DNA of 32,476 nucleotides from Candidatus Falkowbacteria bacterium (GTDB lineage: Bacteria > Patescibacteriota > Patescibacteriia > UBA11705 > JABHMO01). The notes under the pieces were generated by a model. The model was not told the DNA's origin and did not search any database. It was given only the letters and a program-made list of their open reading frames with translations. The DNA lies in the NCBI GenBank assembly GCA_016214755.1, contig JACRNX010000070.1, positions 1 to 32,476 on the forward strand, given 5' to 3'. Of this stretch, positions 2,142 to 29,646 are shown piece after piece; within the stretch, counting starts at the first letter, position 1; each line of letters starts with the position of its first letter. The position numbers were made by a program, and so were the translations under genes.

Positions 2142-3413
2142 ATGTGTCTGGCCACTCCGGCGAAAATCGTCGGTTTTAATCAAGATAAAATTTTAATCGA
2201 AAAGGACGGCGCGACGATGGAAGTCAGCGCTTTTTTATTGCCAAAAGCGAAAATCGGCGATTGGATTTTGTATGTTAATGATTTGGCGATAAAAAAAATT
2301 GACGCGGAAGAGGCGCGAGAGATTTTGCGGCTTGTTGAATCGCCGCGGAATAAAGTCAAGACAGAATTATTAAGTGGTAAGTTTAAGAAGATAATTGAAA
2401 AAGCGCATCAGAACGATTTGAATAAGGGTGAAATAATTTATTTATTAAACAGTGAAGGCATGGAAAAGGACGCATTGCTGGCGGAGGCGGACATCACGCG
2501 CCGCGCGTTCATCAAGGATTTTATTTGCATTCACGGCATTATCGAATTTTCCAATTATTGCGAGAATGATTGCGCGTATTGCGGATTGCGCTCGGCGAAT
2601 GGCGCGATCGAACGTTATCGGATGAGCATTGATGAAATTAAGGAAACCGCGAAGCAGGCGGCCGTCGAAAAAGGATACAAGCTGTTGGTTTTGCAGTCCG
2701 GCGAAGATAATTTTTATACCGACGATATGCTAGTTGAACTGATAAAACAGATTAAGTCCGTCTGTCGAGTGTTTATTTTCATGAGTTGCGGTGAACGCGG
2801 TTTTGAATGTTATAAAAAAATGAAAAACGCGGGCGCGTCGGGCGCGCTCTTGCGTTTTGAAACGTCAAGTCAATCATTATTCACAAAAATTCATCCGCAA
2901 GGAAAAAATTTAGAAAATCGAATTGAGCATTTGCGTTTTTTAAAAGAGTTGGGCTATTTTATCACCACTGGTTCGCTGATTGGTTTGCCTGGACAGACGA
3001 TTGAGGACTTGGCAGATGATATTTTATTGATTGCGCCGCGCGCGCACATGGTTTCAATGGGCCCGTTTATTCCTTGCGATAACACGCCGATGGAGAATTG
3101 CCCGGCTGGCGATCCGGAAATGAATTTAAAGATGATTGCCGTCTTGCGCTTGCTCATGCCGACCGCGAGAATTCCTGTTACTACCGCTCTGGAAACATTG
3201 CTCGGCGAAGACGGCCGGAAACGCGCGCTGGCGGCCGGCGCTAACGCGCTGATGATGAATTTAACGCCGAAAAAATACCGTTCGCTTTATAAAATTTACC
3301 CGGGCCGTTTTTTTGACAATGATTCGCTTTGGCAAAAGTATGGCTTGTTTAAATATGAAGAAAGTTATAAAATGCTTGAAGAGAGAATGGCGAAAGAAAT
3401 TAAGAGAAAATGA
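2142..3413 (+). CDS. hydE: [FeFe]-hydrogenase maturase HydE (radical SAM) with N-terminal HypC/HupF-like domain fusion
   Basis: Residues 1-~70 start MCLATPAKIV… and end …IGDWILYVNDLAIKKIDAEEAREIL, matching the HypC signature (MCL[AG]xP… VGDYVLVHVGFAI..ID.EEA). The rest aligns to HydE: IIEFSNYCENDCAYCGL (CX3CX2C), YRMS..EI, LQSGED, LLRFETS, ENRIEHL..LKELGY, GLPGQTIEDL, MGPFIP, YPGRF. Confidence 0.8.
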   Translation: MCLATPAKIVGFNQDKILIEKDGATMEVSAFLLPKAKIGDWILYVNDLAIKKIDAEEAREILRLVESPRNKVKTELLSGKFKKIIEKAHQNDLNKGEIIYLLNSEGMEKDALLAEADITRRAFIKDFICIHGIIEFSNYCENDCAYCGLRSANGAIERYRMSIDEIKETAKQAAVEKGYKLLVLQSGEDNFYTDDMLVELIKQIKSVCRVFIFMSCGERGFECYKKMKNAGASGALLRFETSSQSLFTKIHPQGKNLENRIEHLRFLKELGYFITTGSLIGLPGQTIEDLADDILLIAPRAHMVSMGPFIPCDNTPMENCPAGDPEMNLKMIAVLRLLMPTARIPVTTALETLLGEDGRKRALAAGANALMMNLTPKKYRSLYKIYPGRFFDNDSLWQKYGLFKYEESYKMLEERMAKEIKRK

Positions 3414-3652: not shown

Positions 3653-5035
3653 ATGCTGTCAGTTAACGATATTGTAACTGAAGACTTAATTCAAGATATT
3701 TTAAATAGAACAAAAAATGCCAGCGATAAAATCGCGCTGGCGATTTTAGAGAAAGCGAGAAAGAAAAAAGGATTAACGCTTGAGGAAGTCGGTTGTTTGA
3801 TTAACGCGCGAGATGACGGATTGATTGCGGAAATATTTGACGCCGCGCGCCAAGTAAAATCAGAAATTTACGGCGAACGTTTAGTCCTTTTCGCGCCGCT
3901 TTACGTTTCCAGCCATTGCGTCAACAATTGCGCGTACTGCGGTTTTCGACAGGATAATGGCGCGGGGCGGAAAAAATTAAGTTTGGAAGAAGTGGCGGAG
4001 CAAGTTAAAATTTTAGAATCAATGGGGCATAAGCGCCTGTTGCTGGAATTTGGCGAGGATCCGAAAGAGTCGCCGATTGACTATGTCGTTGAAGTTATTA
4101 AAACAATTTATGCCACCAAATGCGGTTTAGGCGAAATCCGACGAGTGAACGTTAATATCGCTGCCGATACGGCTGAAAATTATCGACAGTTAAAGGATGC
4201 GGGCATTGGCACTTATCAATTGTTTCAGGAAACTTATGACCGAAAAACTTATAAACAATTGCATCAGGGGCCCAAAGCGGATTACGAGCGGCAACTGTTC
4301 GCCATGGATAGGGCGTTTGAAGCAGGGATTGATGACGTGGGTTTGGGCGTATTATTCGGTCTTTATGATTGGCGGTTTGAAGTGCTGGCAATAATTAGCC
4401 ACGCGCGATACTTGGAAAAAAAGTTTGGCGTTGGCCCGCACACGATTTCTGTCCCGCGCTGGCAAAAAGCAGACGGCGCTCTCTGGCAATCAGCGCCGTC
4501 AGCTGTTTCTGACGATGATTTTTTGAAAATTATCGCTATCCTCCGTTTAGCTGTTCCTTACACGGGCATGATTATTTCCACCCGCGAACGGCCGGAAATT
4601 CGCGCCAAAGCGTTCAGCGTCGGTATTTCGCAGACCTCGGCCGCTTCGAGGACTTCGCCTGGCGGCTATGGCCAAAAATCAGAAACAGCGAATCAGTTTT
4701 GCGTTGCTGACGAGCGAACGCTTGACGAAGTAATCGCGAGTATCCTCGCTCAAGGTTTATTACCGAGTTTTTGCACTGCTTGTTATCGTTTAAAACGCAC
4801 GGGTGAAAATTTTATGGAGTTGGCAAAGCCGGGAGAAATCCAAAAATATTGTCGTCCAAACGCGATTTTGACTTTTCAAGAATATCTCGCGGACTATGCG
4901 TCGCCGGCAGTCAAGGAAAGCGGCGCGCGGGCGATTCAAAAACATTTGAACGCGATTGAAGATTCCGCCGTCCGCGAAGAAACGAAAAAACGGCTGGCGC
5001 GCGTCGCGGCCGGCGAACGCGATATTTATTTTTAG
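3653..5035 (+). CDS. hydG: [FeFe]-hydrogenase maturase HydG (radical SAM tyrosine lyase, ThiH-like)
   Basis: LVLFAPLYVSSHCVNNCAYCGFRQDN radical-SAM motif of the ThiH/HydG family. C-terminal FCTAC-X22-C (CX2CX22C) auxiliary-cluster motif, which is diagnostic for HydG versus ThiH. Confidence 0.85.
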   Translation: MLSVNDIVTEDLIQDILNRTKNASDKIALAILEKARKKKGLTLEEVGCLINARDDGLIAEIFDAARQVKSEIYGERLVLFAPLYVSSHCVNNCAYCGFRQDNGAGRKKLSLEEVAEQVKILESMGHKRLLLEFGEDPKESPIDYVVEVIKTIYATKCGLGEIRRVNVNIAADTAENYRQLKDAGIGTYQLFQETYDRKTYKQLHQGPKADYERQLFAMDRAFEAGIDDVGLGVLFGLYDWRFEVLAIISHARYLEKKFGVGPHTISVPRWQKADGALWQSAPSAVSDDDFLKIIAILRLAVPYTGMIISTRERPEIRAKAFSVGISQTSAASRTSPGGYGQKSETANQFCVADERTLDEVIASILAQGLLPSFCTACYRLKRTGENFMELAKPGEIQKYCRPNAILTFQEYLADYASPAVKESGARAIQKHLNAIEDSAVREETKKRLARVAAGERDIYF

Positions 5036-5128
5036 GACTTGAAATTTTTGATATTTATTGATACGCTGTATTTTGTAATTTGGGATTTGTTTAGAATTTA
5101 GAAATTCGGATTTAGAATTTGTTAGAGG

Positions 5129-5213
5129 GGGCAGGTGGTGGAACTGGTAGACACGTACGGTTCAGAGCCGTATGCCGCGAGGCATGAGGGTTCAAATCCC
5201 TCTCTGCCCACCA
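5129..5213 (+). tRNA. tRNA-Leu (anticodon CAG)
   Basis: Hand-folded cloverleaf: acceptor GGGCAGG/TCTGCCC, 3-bp D stem, anticodon stem TACGG/CCGTA with loop TTCAGAG, long variable arm (tgccgcgaggca), T-loop TTCAAAT, encoded CCA. Confidence 0.85.
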
Positions 5214-5311
5214 ATTTAGAAGTTAGAAATTGGAAATTGGAAGTTAGAGAAATAGATAGTTCTCATTTTTATTTTCCAACTTCTTATCTCCCATCTCTCA
5301 CCTCCAAATTT

Positions 5312-5387
5312 GGGCTCGTAGCTCAGTTGGTAGAGCGCGGCAATCGCAATGCCGAGGCCAGGGGTTCGATTCCCCTCGAGTCCACCA
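5312..5387 (+). tRNA. tRNA-Ala (anticodon CGC)
   Basis: Cloverleaf with the G3·U70 identity pair (GGGCTCG/CGAGTCC), anticodon loop ATCGCAA, T-loop TTCGATT, encoded CCA. Confidence 0.9.
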
Positions 5388-5405
5388 CCCCGACGGACGT
5401 CGGGG
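5388..5405 (+). terminator. GC-rich trailer hairpin after tRNA-Ala (CCCCGACG-ga-CGTCGGGG)
   Basis: Inverted repeat immediately 3' of the CCA end. The same core recurs after tRNA-Pro and at two other sites. Confidence 0.4.
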
Positions 5406-5544
5406 AAACTCAAAATTCCAAGCTCAAAATCCAAAGTAAATTTAAATTTTATAAATTTGATATTTAATTTGAATTTTAGGTTTTGTGCTTGAATCTATAA
5501 GGGTTTGTATCCTAGTCGAAATTTGTTAAAAGATTATAATAATT

Positions 5545-6522
5545 ATGGAATATACGGATAGGGTGTATGGAAATTTTGAAATCGAAGAACCGGTTATTTT
5601 GGAATTGATAAATTCTCCGACGCTTCAGCGATTAAAAGAAATAGATCAAGCGTGATACGGCGAGTCCTATTTCCCGGGCACCGCGCACTCCCGTTTTGAA
5701 CATTCAGTCGGCGTCTATTTGCTTCTTAAAATGTATCAGGCGCCGCTTGAAGAACAAATCGCCGGACTAATTCACGATGCCTCGCATTCAGCTTTTTCCC
5801 ATTGCATAGATTATGTTTTAGACGCCGGCTCGGGGAAAGAACACAATCATCAAGATAATGTTTTTGATGAATTTGTCAGAAAGTCGAAAATTCCCGAAAT
5901 ATTTAAAAAATATAATTTTGATTTAGAATATATTTTGGATGATAAAAATTTTCCGTTAAAAGAAAAGGATTTGCCGGATTTGTGCGCGGACAGAATTGAT
6001 TATTCATTAAGAACCGCCGTTGTTTTTGGAGAAATTGAAAACGGTCAGTATTTTATTGACAATCTTTCGGCAGAAAACGGCCAATGGATTTTCAAGGATT
6101 TTGAAAGCGCGGAAAAATACGCTGAATTATTTTTAAAACTTAACGCCAACTACTACGCTGGTTTGCCTTCCGCGGTTATGTTCCGGACAGTCGGCGACTA
6201 TCTCCGCTACGCGCTTTCAAAACAATATATTTCTGAAACTGATTTATATACCACTGACAAAGTCGTGCTGGAAAAAATAGAGCCGCATATTGAAACTGAT
6301 CCAGAATTAAGTTTGCTGTTTGACAGAATGAATAATAAAATCGGTTTTAAAAACGACCCGAATAATTTTGATGCCAAGGTTTTTTGTAAATCGCGAATGG
6401 TAAATCCTCTTTGCCGGCATGATGGAAAAATCAAAAGAGTTTCAGAGGTAAAGCCAAGTTGGGATGATATAATAAAGCGGGAATCTAAGCCGAAAGAGTA
6501 TTTTTTGAAGTTTGATAAGTAG
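5545..6522 (+). pseudogene. HD-domain metal-dependent phosphohydrolase interrupted by in-frame TGA (5653..5655)
   Basis: The conserved HD N-terminus (…LQRLKEIDQA*YGESYFPGTAHSRFEHSVGVYLL…) is split by an opal codon exactly where HD proteins have a conserved Gly (QLG…YPGA.H.RFEHSLGV). The listed ORF 5719..6522 (TTG start) lacks the H..RFEHS metal-binding half of the HD motif. Confidence 0.55.
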
Positions 6523-6655
6523 TCGGACCGGATGCGGAGGAGAACCGCCCATCATCTTCAAAGGCCAGGCGAGCTTTTGAAGGAATAGCAAAAAACAGAT
6601 AAAGATAATTTATTTGTTTTTTTATTTCAGCTAATTTTAGAGAGGTTTAGGATAG

Positions 6656-6684
6656 TTGACAGAATCATTTTTTTGTGCTATACT
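6656..6684 (+). promoter_or_regulatory. Sigma70-like promoter TTGACA-17-TATACT upstream of GC-rich islet
   Basis: Consensus -35 TTGACA (6656-6661), 17-nt spacer, -10 TATACT (6679-6684), about 45 nt upstream of the SD/ATG at 6731. Confidence 0.5.
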
Positions 6685-6730
6685 TTTATGTTCAGTGACA
6701 TGAACATCAACAACCTAAAGGAGGTGCGTA

Positions 6731-7099
6731 ATGAGGTACGACCAGTTCGTAGGGCTCAACGAAAGAGCCCAGGAGCTCATCAAGGGCGAGCAGGAGCTCG
6801 CCTACACGGAAGAGGTGGTGCGTATTTACCCTGATGGCGGGCAGGAAAGGATGCCGGATCGTCCGGTGTTCGAGTCCACGGTCAAGAAAGAGGAGAGCGG
6901 CGAATCATACACGGGTATGTTCACCGTCGAATATCCGCTCCACAAGTACACTTTCCCCAACGGCCAAATATACTACGAGCGCCTGCAGACAGCGCCGTGG
7001 TCGTCCGGCCCAGTCCATTTCCTCGCCCTCCAAAACGAAGACGGAAAGTGGGTTCCTGAATCCCTCTGGACAGACGAGGAAATCAGGCAAAACACTTAA
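6731..7099 (+). CDS. Hypothetical protein (GC-rich islet gene 1)
   Basis: 122-aa ORF preceded by a strong SD (aaaggaggtgcgtaATG). GC3-rich codon usage unlike its neighbours. Confidence 0.5.
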   Translation: MRYDQFVGLNERAQELIKGEQELAYTEEVVRIYPDGGQERMPDRPVFESTVKKEESGESYTGMFTVEYPLHKYTFPNGQIYYERLQTAPWSSGPVHFLALQNEDGKWVPESLWTDEEIRQNT

Positions 7100-7215
7100 C
7101 CGTTTCTCCCATCTTTCAAGCAAATCAATGGAACGCCCACGCGCGTTCCAATCTCCCCAAGCGATGTGATCCTTCGGTAAGTTCAGGATGATATCGTTTG
7201 GGGAGGTGAACAACC

Positions 7216-7449
7216 ATGATCAACAATAACGCGAAGATTCTGGTGTTCTCGGGTCTGGTGTCCAGGGAATGCGAAGCAGCGGCAGTGCCCAAAGGGCGTC
7301 TGCCTGAGGCGAAGGTGCTGGCGGAGCGTCGGTTGCGCGAGCTCGTCGGGAGGACGCAGGCGGCGCGGCAGGCGGGCAACTTCGAGAGGTACTACACGCT
7401 TCGTCAGCAGGTTCGCGAGATATCTCCCTCCATCGGCCGTCACCTCTAG
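7216..7449 (+). CDS. Hypothetical small protein (GC-rich islet gene 2)
   Basis: 77-aa ORF with SD ggggaggtgaacaaccATG, in the GC-rich segment. Confidence 0.4.
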   Translation: MINNNAKILVFSGLVSRECEAAAVPKGRLPEAKVLAERRLRELVGRTQAARQAGNFERYYTLRQQVREISPSIGRHL

Positions 7450-7613
7450 AAATCCCCTTGGTTCTATCCTCACGAAAAATCCAACCATTTCTACGCCGTG
7501 GACTTCTCTAAGTTCACGGTCCTTCCTTAAAAAATGATTATCATCGTTTTATAAGGAAGTTTCACGAGCAACGTGTTCGTGAAAAGGAAAACCAAACAGA
7601 TAGGGGAGGAAAA

Positions 7614-7874
7614 ATGTTCTGGAAAGCAAAGTTTTACATTGGGATCAGTTTCTTCACTATCGGCGCACTCGCTTTTCTCCTTTCCATCATGTCGCCCACC
7701 TGCAACGGGAATGTACACTTCATCATGTGGTGTACGTATATTCCCCCCGAGAAGTTCAGGTTCTTCGGCTCTTTGATGCTCATTGGCGGTGGGGTATTTC
7801 TTTATGCCTCATTGTCGGGCTTCCTGCGACACTATAAGAGTCTTCAAAGTCACCTGCCATCATCCCGCCAGTAG
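7614..7874 (+). CDS. Hypothetical small membrane protein (GC-rich islet gene 3)
   Basis: 86-aa ORF with SD taggggaggaaaaATG and two predicted hydrophobic helices. Confidence 0.45.
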   Translation: MFWKAKFYIGISFFTIGALAFLLSIMSPTCNGNVHFIMWCTYIPPEKFRFFGSLMLIGGGVFLYASLSGFLRHYKSLQSHLPSSRQ

Positions 7875-8062
7875 CGCTCCGACGTACCCGTCGAAGCGTT
7901 TTCCATTTTAAATATCAGGTTTACAATTTTTTTTTGATTTGTTAAAATCAAATCAATATTATATGGATTTACCCCACCGTGGCGGGGTATACGGATTTTT
8001 TGAGAAAGGACTAAACGTTTTCTTGATTTATTATTTTTTTGATTTCTTAATTTTTTATTTAT

Positions 8063-8139
8063 GGACGACTAGCTCAGCTGGTTAGAGCGCTACACTCACA
8101 CTGTAGAGGTCACTGGTTCGATCCCAGTGTCGTCCACCA
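8063..8139 (+). tRNA. tRNA-Val (anticodon CAC)
   Basis: Cloverleaf: acceptor GGACGAC/GTCGTCC, anticodon loop CTCACAC, T-loop TTCGATC, encoded CCA. Confidence 0.9.
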
Positions 8140-8223
8140 ATTTGGAAGTTGGAGATTAGAGATTGGAGGTTAGAAAGATACTCACTTCTAACTTCTCATT
8201 TCCAATTTCCCGTCTCCAAATTA

Positions 8224-8300
8224 CGGGGTATGGCGCAGTTGGCTAGCGCGCATGCATGGGGTGCATGAGGTCGCCAGTTCAAATCTGGCTACCCCGACCA
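8224..8300 (+). tRNA. tRNA-Pro (anticodon GGG)
   Basis: Cloverleaf: C1-G72 acceptor CGGGGTA/TACCCCG, anticodon loop ATGGGGT with G37, T-loop TTCAAAT, encoded CCA. Confidence 0.9.
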
Positions 8301-8378
8301 TCCTTCGAGGTTCGTCCCGCCAGAAGCGGGACTCGCACCTCAGGATGACAAAAAAATACAGAAGTACTAGAACAAAAA

Positions 8379-20545: not shown

Positions 20546-20553
20546 ATTAAAAA

Positions 20554-20686
20554 GGTTGTAGGTGGTAGGGGGTAGTGAGTAGTTTTATAGAGACGACAAA
20601 AAGTGGAACTGTGAAGTGAGCTGGCTTGGAAGGGTTACTTTTTACGTCAAAAAATCTCTACAACCTACTCACTACAACCTACAACC
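20554..20686. repeat. Long imperfect inverted repeat (about 30-nt arms around a 73-nt spacer) between the ABC permease gene and argS
   Basis: Arm 20554-20582 ggttgtaggtggtagggggtagtgagtag versus arm 20656-20686 ctctacaacctactcactacaacctacaacc. T-runs follow on both strands. Confidence 0.5.
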
Positions 20687-20779
20687 TGTTTCGTTTTTTC
20701 GTATGTTGTTAATCCGTATATCCGAACATAATCCGTAATCCGTACCTTTATTTTATCATTCTTCCATTTATTTTTAAAC

Positions 20780-22094: not shown

Positions 22095-22205
22095 GCAGCA
22101 CCGTCATTGCGAGGAGTCAGACGACGAAGCAATCTCGAGACTATAGGCGCTGGGATTGCTTCGTCGCCCCGACGTACGTCGGAGCTCCTCGCAATGACAA
22201 AGGAG
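22095..22205. repeat. Compound nested palindromic element (REP/MITE-like) at ATPase-permease junction
   Basis: Outer stem gtcattgcgaggag/ctcctcgcaatgac. Inner stem gacgaagcaatc/gattgcttcgtc. Innermost ccgacg-ta-cgtcgg. Overlaps the last about 20 codons of the ATPase ORF. Confidence 0.65.
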
Positions 22206-24904: not shown

Positions 24905-25180
24905 AATTACCCTTCGACCCTTCGACAAGCTCAGGGCTCAGGGCAAGCTTATCACTACGAATGTTACAAATAAAAACTCTAACTATCTATCTCGAAAAAT
25001 CCGTACCAGAGTGTCATGGTGAGGCATGTGCTGAGTTTATCGAAGCGCTCTCAAACCACGACACTGGCACCCTTCGAGGGCCTCAGGGTGACAGAAAGAA
25101 CGCAATTGTCATCCTGAGGAATGTCACCCTGAGCTTGTCGAAGAGTGCGAGTCCCCGACGTAAAGTCGGGACGAGCCGCG
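24905..25180. repeat. Complex repeat region: tandem 8-mers, nested palindromes and long-range inverted repeats
   Basis: cccttcga x2 and gctcaggg x2. cttcgacaagctcaggg (about 24921) pairs with ccctgagcttgtcgaag (about 25122). cctcagggtgaca…tgtcatcctgagg palindrome. gtccccgacgtaaagtcgggac hairpin (25151-25172). Confidence 0.6.
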
Positions 25181-26145: not shown

Positions 26146-27009
26146 ATGAGCAGCTACGAAGATTTTAAAAATCGGTTCAAATTACTAGCTGGCAAAAATC
26201 GTCATTTGGTAGTTAATACCTTATCAAACATTTTTACAATGAGATTAATTGGGAATAAAACGCACGGCGATTTAGCTGAAATTGGAATTGTCGAGTTTAT
26301 CAATCAATTCATGTATGATTTTAAAAGTATTCATGTTGGCAAAGACCTTTTTCGGGCGAAAGAACACGAAGAAGATATAATGATAATGAGCGAGATAAGC
26401 AAAACGAAATTTCCCGTCAGCTTAAAAGCTTATGGGGATGGTCTTTTGCAATTATCCACTGACAGCAAACAGAAGATGTTCCCATTTCTTGAAAAGCAAG
26501 GTAAAGAAATCCGGGATAATAGAAAGATAGAAGCAATTTTTAACGCTTCTGAATTTTTCGATTTTGGGGCAATAAATGTAATGCCTCTAATTTATGATGA
26601 AAAAAATCAACGCTGCAACATCATGATTTTTGACCATAAAAAGGCAAGAGACAACATAAATAAAATTATATTTATTGATAAGGGACAAAGATTTGATTTT
26701 ATGACAGGCAGAGTGGTGCCAGGAAAGGGGAGATCCCATCCGATTTATATGTTTGTAGATCCTAAAAATGAATATATATGTGAAGTAAGATATGGCGGTG
26801 CTTCGGCAAATGCTTTACAGCGCGGCCTTTGGACACACACAAAAAACGCTATTGATTATTTTGACTCTCTCACAAATGGCTGGATAGATTATTCACACAA
26901 TCATACACTTGTAAAACTTTTTGGCCTTGCTTTAAATAGTTCCGAAGAAGGTCATAAAGTTGCTAATGAAATCTTACAGAAAGACATTGATAGGCTTAAA
27001 AAATTATGA
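26146..27009 (+). CDS. Putative Type II restriction endonuclease
   Basis: 287-aa ORF whose stop overlaps the methyltransferase start (ATGA), the classic R-M gene arrangement. Distant resemblance (…YICEVRYGGASANA…) to DpnII/MboI-family catalytic region. Unconfirmed. Confidence 0.5.
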   Translation: MSSYEDFKNRFKLLAGKNRHLVVNTLSNIFTMRLIGNKTHGDLAEIGIVEFINQFMYDFKSIHVGKDLFRAKEHEEDIMIMSEISKTKFPVSLKAYGDGLLQLSTDSKQKMFPFLEKQGKEIRDNRKIEAIFNASEFFDFGAINVMPLIYDEKNQRCNIMIFDHKKARDNINKIIFIDKGQRFDFMTGRVVPGKGRSHPIYMFVDPKNEYICEVRYGGASANALQRGLWTHTKNAIDYFDSLTNGWIDYSHNHTLVKLFGLALNSSEEGHKVANEILQKDIDRLKKL

Positions 27010-28133
27010 ACGATCAACAATTAGACATTTTCGGCAGAAAAACATTGGTTGTTCCGACAACAGAAGGCATCAAATACGCAGGGTCAAAATTAAAAATACT
27101 ACCTTACATCGTTCAAATTCTAGGCGAACTTGACGGAGTAAAAAAGGTACTTGATGGGTTTAGCGGAACAACCAGAGTTTCTCAAGCTTTTGCTCAGCTT
27201 GGATATAAAACGACAGCCAACGATATTTCAGCTTGGTCTGAAGTTTTTGGTACGTGCTATCTAAAGTCAAAAAAAGAAGATAAATTTTATCAGCAAATTT
27301 TAGATCGCTTGAATGGCTTAAAAGGATATGATGGCTGGTACACAAAACACTACGGGGCGGAAATAGACGAGGGCAAAAAACCCTTTCAAACAAAGAATAC
27401 TAGAAAACTCGATGCAATAAGGGATGAGATAGAGAAATTGGATTTATCGTGGGAAGATAAATGTGTTATTTTAACAAGCTTAATCTATGCCCTTGATTCT
27501 GTTGATAGTACCCTTGGGCACTATGTTTCTTACTTGGCAAAATGGTCTCCAAGATCGCATAATGGTTTATTTTTGAAATTGCCAAAAAGATTTAAAACCA
27601 AAGGAAAACACGAAGTAATTCGTGGAGATATTTTTGATACGATACAAAAAAAAGAATTTGATTTTGTATATTTCGACCCTCCTTATGGCTCAAACAATGA
27701 AAAAATGCCTCCGAGCCGTGTCAGGTATGCTTCTTATTATCACATATGGACTACTATTATCAATCACGACAAGCCTGAATTATTTGGAAAGGTTAATCGA
27801 AGAGTGGACACAAGAGATATTGTTGCTAGTTCTGTTTTTGAGGAATTTAGAAAAAATGAAAAAGGAAGTTTTATCGCTATGGAGGCGTTAAGAAAACTAA
27901 TCCAAGAAACTAAATCTCATTATATTCTTCTTTCGTATAGTTCTGGAGGTAGGGCGACGAAGCAAGAATTAAATGACATAATACACGAATCGGGAAAATT
28001 ACTAAAAGCAGTTGAAATTAACTATAAAATAAATGTTATGGGTGGTATGCGTTGGACAAACAAATGGATTAACAGCGATAATCAACACCATGAGTATTTA
28101 TTCTTAATGGAAAAGACAAGGAATGTGTTTTGA
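27006..28133 (+). CDS. DNA N6-adenine methyltransferase, D12 (Dam-like) class
   Basis: Motif I-like KYAGSKLKILPYI and catalytic FDFVYFDPPYGS (DPPY). Confidence 0.85.
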   Translation: MNDQQLDIFGRKTLVVPTTEGIKYAGSKLKILPYIVQILGELDGVKKVLDGFSGTTRVSQAFAQLGYKTTANDISAWSEVFGTCYLKSKKEDKFYQQILDRLNGLKGYDGWYTKHYGAEIDEGKKPFQTKNTRKLDAIRDEIEKLDLSWEDKCVILTSLIYALDSVDSTLGHYVSYLAKWSPRSHNGLFLKLPKRFKTKGKHEVIRGDIFDTIQKKEFDFVYFDPPYGSNNEKMPPSRVRYASYYHIWTTIINHDKPELFGKVNRRVDTRDIVASSVFEEFRKNEKGSFIAMEALRKLIQETKSHYILLSYSSGGRATKQELNDIIHESGKLLKAVEINYKINVMGGMRWTNKWINSDNQHHEYLFLMEKTRNVF

Positions 28134-28283: not shown

Positions 28284-28407
28284 AATTTTTTAAATGATTT
28301 TAAATTATGATGCTGATGTCGTTAATAAGCGAACCGTTATTTTTCATTGTTTGGCTATTCGCCATTGTCGTGGTTTTGACTATCCACGAATTTTCGCACG
28401 CGCTCGC
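28284..28407 (+). repeat. Direct repeat copy A (about 89% identical to 29522..29646), 5' end of M50 protease gene
   Basis: 124-nt segment including the upstream AT-rich leader and the first about 33 codons (MMLMSLISEPLFF.VWLFAIVVVLTIHEFSHALA). 44 nt are identical at the distal end. Confidence 0.85.
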
Positions 28408-28601: not shown

Positions 28602-29507
28602 ATGCCAAAAACATTACATATTATTAACATAATTTCTCACCTGCGAGAACGTTATTATGCCGCGGCTGTTGGCAAACAGGCGCTTTTGAAATTGTTGAGC
28701 GAAGCGGAAGTGGCCGAACAGGTATATAACTCCAATGCCATTGAAAACAGCACGCTCACTCTTGAAGAAACAGAGAAAATACTTTTGCAAATAGATTTGG
28801 ATAGATATATTACTGAACGAGAAATTTTTGAAGCGAAAAATCTGGCGCGGGTTGTGTCATATATTGACAAAAGAGCCAAGGAGCAAGAATTAACTCTCGA
28901 AGTAATTTTATCACTTCATAAAATGTTAATTTCAAATATCCGCGACGATATTGCCGGTAGATTCAGAAAGGAAAATGAATTTGTGCGTGTCGGCAGCCAC
29001 ATCGCCCCTAACCCCAAAGAGATAGTGAATCGTCTGGAAAAAATATTGTCCGAATATAATGCTTCGAGTCATGAAAATATAATCAGAAGAATAGCAAAAT
29101 TGCATCTTGCCTTTGAATACACTCATCCATTTTGTGACGGCAATGGCCGCATTGGCCGCGTTATCAATAATTACCTGTTAATACGAGAAGGGTTTGTCCC
29201 TATAAATATAAAATTTATTGACAGAAAAAAATATTATGAAGCGTTTATAGAATTTGATGCCAAGGGCGCGACCGCTATTATGGAAGAAATAGTCGGCAAG
29301 GCGCTGACCAATAGTTATTATAAACGACTTGCTTATCTTGAGGGCGCGCAGATTCTAACCCTTGCTGAATATGCAAAAATGAATAAAATATCCCACTCTA
29401 ATTTAATTAATAAAGCCAGCCGTCAAACAATTGAGGCCTTCTTAGAAAAAGGGGTGTGGAAAATAGGCGTCGCGCAAAAAGACAGTATGAACAAATCAGA
29501 ACCCTAA
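28602..29507 (+). CDS. Fic-domain protein (class II, AMPylase-type) with C-terminal winged-helix-like region
   Basis: FIC motif HPFCDGNGRIGR (HxFx[DE]GNGRxxR). N-terminal inhibitory-helix motif SNAIEN ([ST]xxxE[GN]) upstream of the core. Confidence 0.85.
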   Translation: MPKTLHIINIISHLRERYYAAAVGKQALLKLLSEAEVAEQVYNSNAIENSTLTLEETEKILLQIDLDRYITEREIFEAKNLARVVSYIDKRAKEQELTLEVILSLHKMLISNIRDDIAGRFRKENEFVRVGSHIAPNPKEIVNRLEKILSEYNASSHENIIRRIAKLHLAFEYTHPFCDGNGRIGRVINNYLLIREGFVPINIKFIDRKKYYEAFIEFDAKGATAIMEEIVGKALTNSYYKRLAYLEGAQILTLAEYAKMNKISHSNLINKASRQTIEAFLEKGVWKIGVAQKDSMNKSEP

Positions 29508-29521
29508 TAAAAGCAATGAGT

Positions 29522-29646
29522 AATTTTTTAAAATGATTTTAAATTATGATGCTGATGTCATTAATAAGCGAACCGCTGTTTTTTGTCGTCTGGCTGTTCG
29601 CCATTGTCGTGGTTTTGACTATCCACGAATTTTCGCACGCGCTCGC
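29522..29646 (+). repeat. Direct repeat copy B (start of intact M50 protease gene)
   Basis: See copy A. Together the repeats bracket the Fic gene. Confidence 0.85.

Follow-up and report, generated by a model that had tools for sequence, protein, structure and literature searches.

Why are two pairs of different tRNA genes in one genome separated by spacers that look alike, and what might such a spacer do? The DNA analyzed here, called the window throughout, is a 32,476-nt complete contig of Candidatus Falkowbacteria, a member of the Patescibacteria (candidate phyla radiation, CPR). One pair, tRNA-Leu(CAG) and tRNA-Ala(CGC), encloses a spacer of 98 nt at 5214-5311 (S1), and the other, tRNA-Val(CAC) and tRNA-Pro(GGG), a spacer of 84 nt at 8140-8223 (S2). 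These coordinates came from an earlier reading of the letters without database searches (the sequence-only reading), and ARAGORN and Rfam bear them out. We found that each spacer is a single long imperfect hairpin of tandem heptamers, reaching from CCA to 2 nt before the next tRNA, and that the same arms recur as stems of intervening sequences (IVS) in rRNA genes of other contigs. As to function, we give an even chance to the reading that S1 and S2 are IVS-like heptamer palindromes, free of open reading frames (ORFs), that would provide an RNase III-cleavable stem between co-transcribed tRNAs.

Two spacers built as heptamer hairpins

The 5′ arm of each spacer consists of ATTT followed by 4.5 tandem heptamers of the consensus RGARRTT (runs at 5218-5249 in S1 and 8144-8175 in S2), and in the 3′ arm the complement AAYYTCY is repeated with more degeneracy. 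Both spacers close with the shared terminus ...CTCCAAATT(T/A), as had been seen from the sequence. When the arms are aligned, pairing begins 0 nt after CCA and ends 2 nt before the next tRNA in both spacers, with 33 Watson-Crick, 3 G.U, and 5 A.C among the 45 positions of S1 and 28, 6, and 3, respectively, among the 39 of S2. The terminal inverted repeat of the sequence-only reading is real and had been understated, since it is longer than 8 bp and makes a hairpin of the whole spacer. In the folds the termini do pair and would bring the two tRNA ends together. The proposal that both spacers fold as RNA stood for S2 on the tRNA (+) strand (-30.2 kcal/mol, z -4.75), while S1 gave a strong fold on the opposite strand (-33.3 kcal/mol, z -5.4) and not on that of the tRNAs. 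The complementary termini give a long stem of about 25 bp or more, as in IVS, with the + strand fold of S2 being convincing. The individual features are listed in Table 1.

Table 1. Position and make-up of the four tRNA genes, the two spacer hairpins, and a third hairpin of the window
Feature	Coordinates	Strand	Description and basis
tRNA-Leu(CAG)	5129-5213	+	Upstream partner of S1; encoded CCA; ARAGORN; Rfam RF00005, 51.4 bits
S1 5′ purine arm	5214-5255	+	ATTT AGAAGTT AGAAATT GGAAATT GGAAGTT AGAG, then degenerate units; sequence, pattern, fold, arm alignment
S1 loop / degenerate center	5256-5267	+	Fold of the - strand
S1 3′ pyrimidine arm	5268-5309	+	Degenerate AAYYTCY, end ...CACCTCCAAAT, 2 nt before tRNA-Ala
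tRNA-Ala(CGC)	5312-5387	+	Downstream partner of S1; encoded CCA; ARAGORN, Rfam
tRNA-Val(CAC)	8063-8139	+	Upstream partner of S2; encoded CCA; ARAGORN, Rfam
S2 5′ purine arm	8140-8175	+	ATTT GGAAGTT GGAGATT AGAGATT GGAGGTT AGAA; sequence, fold, pattern
S2 loop	8176-8185	+	AGAUACUCAC; minimum free energy (MFE) and centroid fold
S2 3′ pyrimidine arm	8186-8221	+	TTCTAACTTCTCATTTCCAATTTCCCGTCTCCAAAT; ends 2 nt before tRNA-Pro; fold
tRNA-Pro(GGG)	8224-8300	+	Downstream partner of S2; encoded CCA; ARAGORN, Rfam
Third hairpin	20549-20698		About 5 units of a GGTTGTA-like heptamer per arm, about 60-nt center, just upstream of the ArgRS start

The heptamer run is present in both tRNA-tRNA spacers of the window (2/2) and at no other site in it. 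A scan of the window revealed no promoter-like or terminator-like site inside S1 or S2. Neither spacer has the GC-rich stem and U-tract of an intrinsic terminator; after their AT-rich stems come AAATTT or AAATTA and the tRNA. At gathering score, Rfam 15 detected the four tRNAs only, leaving the spacers without a match, and found no rRNA in the window; at E values up to 1, S1 and S2 gave only far sub-threshold chance matches.

The likeness of the two spacers had been taken as homology of a specific 36-nt sequence, with the spacer and not the tRNAs as the repeated unit. The second part of this claim is correct, and the degenerate 35-mer written for the motif matches only the two spacers within the window, with 0 matches in 100 shuffles. 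The first part is not supported, as the two spacers resemble each other no more than any two members of the heptamer class described below. The 35-nt motif has six differences, each of them an exchange of A and G at one of the heptamer's three free positions, and identity at the free A/G positions is at chance level (7/14, counting the next base, which is also a differing free position). Over the 32-nt heptamer array, S1 and S2 agree at 25 of 32 positions; compared with 93 distinct arrays from unrelated metagenome contigs, the means were 22-25, and 27-59% of such pairs reached 25 or more of 32. S1 and S2 have a rule in common (heptamer consensus, unit number, and register to CCA) rather than a specific ancestral 36-mer.

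The Val-Pro hairpin is retained in a relative, the JGI contig L242 of related Falkowbacteria, whose ArgRS is 76% identical to that of the window. There, tRNA-Val(CAC), identical at 75 of 77 positions to its counterpart, is followed by a 95-nt spacer and tRNA-Pro(GGG), and this spacer, too, forms a heptamer hairpin (-38.9 kcal/mol, z -5.5), with 7 units in the 5′ arm vs. 4.5 in S2 and one double change from G-C to U-A at the base of the stem. Moreover, the L242 spacer before tRNA-Ala ends in ...AACCTCCAACCTCCAAATTA, as S1 does, and a 6-unit purine run follows tRNA-Ala. With the Val-Pro hairpin present in both Falkowbacteria contigs, no presence/absence polymorphism is seen. A search for orthologues through the neighboring HD-domain gene led to homologues in unrelated neighborhoods, L242 alone being syntenic.

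On the reading given above, each tRNA pair would be transcribed together as a dicistronic precursor, in which the spacer would fold in vivo into an imperfect stem of about 30-35 bp, from the base after CCA to 2 nt before the second tRNA. The stem would be cut, most likely by RNase III, and the two tRNAs separated, to the presumed benefit of the cell. Such a cut would leave a short C-free purine 3′ trailer, which exonucleases would trim back to CCA, and a short leader, which RNase P would remove.

Upstream of tRNA-Leu, at 5090-5124, lies a purine-type, heptamer-like run (TTTAGAA TTTAGAA ATTCGGA TTTAGAA). The best promoter-like hexamers, TTTAGA-17-TAGAAT, overlap this run and have their end 11 nt from the tRNA. 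A CT-rich run that looks complementary to the purine-type run follows tRNA-Ala at about 5406-5445. A leader-trailer stem enclosing each operon was suggested by MFE folds and was dropped because the Leu "leader" run overlaps promoter-like hexamers and the leaders of first tRNAs generally have no arm (62/64).

The same arms beside other tRNAs and inside rRNA genes

Two scans show how far the hairpin is spread; the counts that follow refer to the matches listed. A scan of species-representative genomes, requiring 3.5 heptamers, gave at least 120 matches, from Chloroflexota, Bacteroidota, Patescibacteria, Acidobacteriota, Cyanobacteria, Armatimonadota, and others. Among 128 such runs, 48 were mostly paired to a complementary arm downstream. 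Gene orientation around the hairpins of named genomes followed no clear pattern, with all intergenic configurations occurring, and the heptamer hairpin in general is not tRNA-specific. Two scans of viral contigs, bearing on a viral origin, were without a match.

Metagenomes were scanned with a pattern made of the tRNA T-arm, CCA, 0-10 nt, and 2.5 heptamers, which matched at least 120 contigs. Of 125 matches, 111 coincide with tRNA 3′ ends called by ARAGORN, the tRNAs being of many identities, and in 58 a second tRNA follows on the same strand, 28-316 nt downstream. Counting S1 and S2, 40 of the 54 distinct tRNA-tRNA spacers are this hairpin, which begins within 5 nt of CCA in 26 of the 40 and whose 3′ arm, unconstrained by the search, ends within 5 nt of the next tRNA in 29. 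The arms are 3-5 units long in 47 of the 54 spacers, most commonly 4, and the purine run is essentially C-free. Because the pattern called for a purine run on the sense strand after CCA, it biases the orientation statistics near tRNAs; the purine arm is 5′ in all 18 hairpins of named genomes and in all 16 hairpins of the metagenome loci whose orientation was not forced. Six apparent exceptions to this polarity are arms of neighboring hairpins that flank a tRNA or a piece of rRNA. S1 and S2 have all the marks of the class, namely 4.5 RGARRTT units each, an AAYYTCY 3′ arm, and the purine arm first.

The feature also persists in orthologous spacers. For example, the Val-Asp-Phe-Thr, Thr-Tyr-Thr-tuf, Ser-Ser, and Arg-His spacers retain it across related contigs, while repeat number and A/G pattern vary; one of the lineages is Armatimonadota, judged by its EF-Tu cluster. 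Judged by the refuting conditions that the sequence-only reading had set for itself, specific homology and covariation do not stand, but the lack of further copies is overturned: the class is abundant, linked to tRNA 3′ ends, and shared with rRNA IVS. It is widespread and apparently undescribed.

Other heptamers form runs or hairpins that flank tRNAs: CTGATAA/CTGACAG, GTAAACA/TGTTTAC, and GAAATTC. They were found in L132 (tRNA-Lys leader and Lys/Glu spacer), at 7170-7200 of L057, in the Arg/Ser spacer of L156 (a GTAAACA hairpin), and in the Arg/Lys spacer of L170 (a GAAATTC hairpin). Similarly, the third hairpin of the window folds strongly on both strands (-47.8 kcal/mol, z -7.2, on the - strand; -53.9 kcal/mol, z -5.5, on the + strand) and has the architecture of S1 and S2, but belongs to another sequence family. 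It is not conserved before ArgRS in L242, where a 120-nt direct duplication is found instead. The period-7 architecture is more general than the RGARRTT sequence. One might then suppose that the hairpins have no RNA function at all, being cruciform- or slippage-prone DNA from independent microsatellite expansion, or sites for DNA-binding proteins. The other heptamers that make like hairpins (GTAAACA, GAAATTC, and GGTTGTA in the window) speak for this, as do the strand symmetry of the transition mismatches and the fast shift of repeat number between relatives. We nevertheless regard a role at the DNA level, or none, as very improbable, because slippage leaves the cross-phylum consensus, the fixed arms of 4-5 units, and the strict polarity unexplained, along with the placement at the tips of rRNA helices, where the RNA must fold.

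That placement became apparent from the metagenome loci, where many further heptamer runs fall inside rRNA genes. In L132, L149, L154, and L211, an insertion of about 500 nt interrupts the 23S gene between ACCGAAGCT... and ...GGGTAGGGGAGCG, a site that we take to be helix 45, as recognized from the E. coli sequence. The stems of these IVS are 4.5-5 RGARRTT units and their complement, and the loop encodes a 118-aa protein of the PF05635 23S_rRNA_IVP family (E about 1e-34). ORF-less hairpins with the same arms replace the tip of 23S helix 25 in L168, L123, L222, and L201, of 16S helix 6 in L201 and L208, and of 16S helix 44 in L201. In addition, L154 carries two copies of one element: the hairpin of its tRNA-Ile/Ala spacer and the one that opens its helix-45 IVS on the 5′ side are about 85% identical over 108 nt. 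A non-heptamer inner hairpin, GGAATTCGC...GCGAATTCC, is part of the match, and the alignment score is 137, vs. 66-99 against tRNA-spacer hairpins of other contigs. Therefore, tRNA-spacer and IVS hairpins are one family, whose copies move or convert from site to site in a genome. Outside rRNA, too, IVP cassettes are found between these arms (L012, L075, and L107), and in the cassettes the purine arm provides a GGAGG shortly before the IVP start codon.

RNase III is known to excise IVS that have inverted-repeat stems at these helices, and the Coxiella IVS, termed a selfish element, is reported to contain heptameric repeats of variable number next to the S23p ORF (PMC4990558). Short non-intron insertions have been reported from CPR bacteria at known IVS sites (PMC11270868).

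The four contigs with the helix-45 insertion hold Patescibacteria-like single operons with long rRNA insertions (in L132, a 16S gene of 1764 nt and a 23S gene of 3925 nt) in the order 16S-Ala-Ile-23S-Lys-Glu-5S-Asn-.... In L132, the 23S gene contains two IVP-like ORFs, and a Gut-1 RNA match lies beyond the tRNA cluster. Heptamer arms flanking its 5S rRNA were at one point taken for a pair; this was wrong, as both flanks are purine-type.

Processing stem, passenger, or trailer

The sequence-only reading had offered a processing module and a mobile spacer element as explanations, and these are the two that are still live. Several observations weigh against a processing stem. S1 folds weakly on the tRNA strand (-19.0 kcal/mol, z -1.5), because five + strand A.C mismatches become G.U on the - strand. 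The covariation looked for between the arms is absent beyond the consensus: 650 chimeric arm combinations pair as well as the 26 real hairpins (Watson-Crick fraction 0.72 vs. 0.745). The spacer hairpins show no sense-strand bias, with 170 G.U vs. 175 A.C. Only 5 of 49 other tRNA-tRNA spacers of the same contigs carry the element, which is therefore not required for tRNA maturation, and only 3 of the 128 runs of the genome scan lie within 150 nt of a tRNA, where about 1.5 are expected by chance. Of 46 terminal tRNAs, 37 carry the purine run alone, with no complementary arm; what comes next is usually a GC-rich terminator hairpin. In L132 and L149, the canonical stems for processing 16S and 23S rRNA are not made of heptamers. 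Finally, a conserved heptamer consensus and a strict purine-first polarity (34/34) are both more than a plain RNase III stem requires. The conserved heptamer, the fixed unit number, and the absent covariation together hint at an unknown sequence-specific partner.

Much of this would follow if the hairpins were passengers, that is, miniature ORF-less derivatives of a selfish cassette made of purine arm, IVP ORF, and pyrimidine arm. They would be lodged at sites where a hairpin causes no harm (tRNA spacers, the tips of rRNA helices, and intergenic DNA) and would have no part in tRNA maturation, any cleavage being incidental. IVP cassettes with the same arms both inside and outside rRNA fit such a descent, as do the copy common to tRNA spacer and IVS in L154, the 44 of 49 other tRNA spacers without the element, the many genomic runs away from tRNAs with hairpins in all intergenic configurations, and the lack of both covariation and strand bias. 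The purine-first polarity would be natural, because the purine arm would be the GGAGG-bearing 5′ untranslated region of the IVP ORF from which ORF-less hairpins descend, and the Coxiella IVS has itself been described as selfish (PMC4990558). Against a passenger stand the retention of the Val/Pro hairpin in both Falkowbacteria, with no presence/absence polymorphism seen among relatives, and that of the Asp/Phe, Thr/Tyr/Thr, and Ser/Ser hairpins across related contigs despite sequence turnover. Moreover, no target-site duplication can be made out at the tRNA borders, S1 is no close copy of S2, arm length is tightly constrained, and no IVP-like ORF is present in the window or in L242. Overall, we consider a pure passenger somewhat unlikely, but it is the main rival of the processing stem and a strong one, given the absent covariation, the absent sense-strand G.U bias, and the lack of the element in most other tRNA spacers.

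The terminal tRNAs raise another alternative: what works could be the purine run (RGARRUU)n itself, single-stranded, in the role of a tRNA 3′ trailer. It could offer endonucleases an array of entry sites, give 3′ exonucleases a C-free trailer, or bind proteins as an array. The pyrimidine arm would be a secondary addition, made only where another tRNA follows. Besides the 37 of 46 terminal tRNAs with a run, usually a terminator hairpin, and no complementary arm, this would account for the Arg/His, Ile/Phe, and some Met/Val spacers that have the purine run only, for the first-tRNA leaders without either arm (62/64), for the nearly complete lack of C in the run, and for the 6-unit run after tRNA-Ala in L242. 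Each RGARRUU unit resembles the RNase E-type motif RN|WUU; we know of no nuclease specificity established for these phyla, however, which counts against a trailer. The search pattern itself required a sense-strand purine run after CCA, biasing the orientation statistics; in IVS and at the tips of rRNA helices the run is paired without exception; and where a hairpin forms, the run would be sequestered in its stem. A trailer function therefore strikes us as quite improbable.

The cleavable stem between co-transcribed tRNAs remains our preferred reading; a wider one is also conceivable. IVP relatives crystallize as pentamers (2gsc and 2rld, five chains each) and resemble the RNA-binding Avd of diversity-generating retroelements (10.1101/2023.10.23.563531). 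By analogy with these pentamers, a sequence-specific partner for an array of about five heptamers is conceivable. It is an unlikely speculation that the heptamer palindromes are a pan-bacterial mobile or self-copying family, with purine arm-IVP ORF-pyrimidine arm as the autonomous form, IVP reading about five heptamers, one per subunit, and the hairpins of the window as non-autonomous members. IVP would then be a basic, pentameric, Avd-related four-helix-bundle barrel, and stable-RNA genes would be colonized because excision by RNase III makes the insertion harmless. If the preferred reading holds, tRNA operons of several little-studied phyla (Patescibacteria, Armatimonadota, and others) would use, or at any rate tolerate, the modular double-stranded RNA element that also fragments their rRNAs, and tRNA-precursor processing, rRNA IVS, and the long-unexplained 23S-IVS protein family would be joined in one system. 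The rule (RGARRTT)4-5, loop, (AAYYTCY)4-5, purine first, can be used for annotating such elements. It may help to predict rRNA fragmentation and spacer processing in uncultured bacteria, and makes the origin of IVS testable.

Neighboring features and known systems

Between the two tRNA pairs, an HD-domain ORF of 325 codons (5545-6522) contains one in-frame TGA at 5653-5655 (..IDQA*YGES..). Its intact 325-aa homologues are 76-87% identical and come from many Patescibacteria lineages and from contigs with archaeal-type neighbors (MC1 and TFIIB); they usually lie beside tRNA genes, in unrelated neighborhoods. The gene looks horizontally mobile, and the copy in the window would be a pseudogene, a sequencing error, or a recoding event. 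The region at 6520-7900 contains small ORFs with no Pfam matches and a GC content of about 0.49, vs. about 0.40. This block, conserved beside the HD gene in L242 (2600-3300), is possibly an island integrated beside tRNAs.

A GC-rich palindrome, CCCCGACG..CGTCGGGG, recurs at 5388-5405, 8377-8408, and about 22165-22185. These sites lie directly after tRNA-Ala, about 80 nt after tRNA-Pro (bidirectional terminator-like), and near macB-type ABC genes, and the palindrome looks like a REP-like (repetitive extragenic palindrome) or terminator motif of this genome. Two further hairpins have the common motif CCTTCGAGG...CCTCAGGRTGACA: one at 8301-8346, beginning directly behind the CCA of tRNA-Pro (-23 kcal/mol, z -3.4), and an intergenic one of 90 nt at 25063-25152 (-43 kcal/mol, z -3.7).

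Elsewhere in the window, a HydE-like radical-SAM maturase with an N-terminal HupF/HypC domain (2142-3413; domain at residues 1-64) is followed by HydG (3653-5035); the nearest homologues, at about 70%, come partly from Patescibacteria and partly from DPANN archaea. Major-vault-protein domains (MVP shoulder, Vault repeats, and SPFH/Band 7) occur, here in a CPR bacterium, in a 555-aa protein encoded on the - strand at 10514-12181. A Fic/DOC-family gene (28602-29507) lies between the two copies of a direct repeat of 122 nt (28286-28407 and 29525-29646; 93% identical), and just upstream are a D12 adenine methyltransferase (27006-28133) and an unannotated partner ORF (26146-27009).

The kind of element described here is already known, from IVS, from RNase III stems, and from the heptameric repeats of one IVS. 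In the literature searched, we found no description of heptamer hairpins in tRNA-tRNA spacers, no cross-phylum heptamer consensus with fixed unit number and polarity, including for IVS stems, and no direct paralogy of a tRNA spacer and an IVS stem.

The Correia/NEMIS elements of Neisseria are short palindromic intergenic miniature inverted-repeat transposable elements (MITEs), whose transcribed hairpins are RNase III substrates and affect the processing of neighboring genes. S1 and S2 are likewise short, palindromic, and intergenic. MITEs, however, have defined unique terminal inverted repeats, target-site duplications, and many near-identical copies, whereas the heptamer arms are degenerate low-complexity repeats. 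The palindrome reaches the tRNA borders (CCA followed directly by ATTT...AAATT), hiding any separate direct repeat, and the two window spacers, at 25/32 in the arm, are no closer than unrelated class members; near-identical copies within a genome do occur elsewhere (L154).

RNase III stems flank 16S and 23S rRNA, and a hairpin of this type follows the tRNA gene metY in the E. coli metY-nusA-infB operon. Like S1 and S2, they are long duplexes in a precursor that delimit a stable RNA, and theirs are cut to start maturation. Their sequences are unique and co-vary, unlike the heptamer hairpins, which lack covariation.

Heptanucleotide repeats are known from cyanobacteria as the STRR family. Intergenic TAACTGA direct repeats occur in Beggiatoaceae, Cyanobacteria, and Bacteroidetes (PMC4679880). 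Both are, as RGARRTT is, period-7 tandem intergenic repeats with a patchy cross-phylum spread and overlapping host phyla, but they are direct repeats of other sequence, found mostly just before start codons, and not inverted pairs abutting tRNA or rRNA ends. CTGATAA-like runs, close to the published TAACTGA, adjoin RGARRTT runs in L132 and L057.

A close parallel is given by the IVS of 23S helices 25 and 45 and of 16S, among them the S23p/IVP-encoding IVS of Salmonella, Leptospira, and Coxiella. Their terminal inverted repeats pair, within the precursor of a stable RNA, into a stem of about 28-35 bp, as do those of S1 and S2. IVS sit at the tips of rRNA helices, while S1 and S2 lie between tRNA genes, are ORF-less, and have an excision that is only predicted. 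In Patescibacteria-like rRNA operons, the IVS have the same RGARRTT/AAYYTCY arms as the two spacers of the window.

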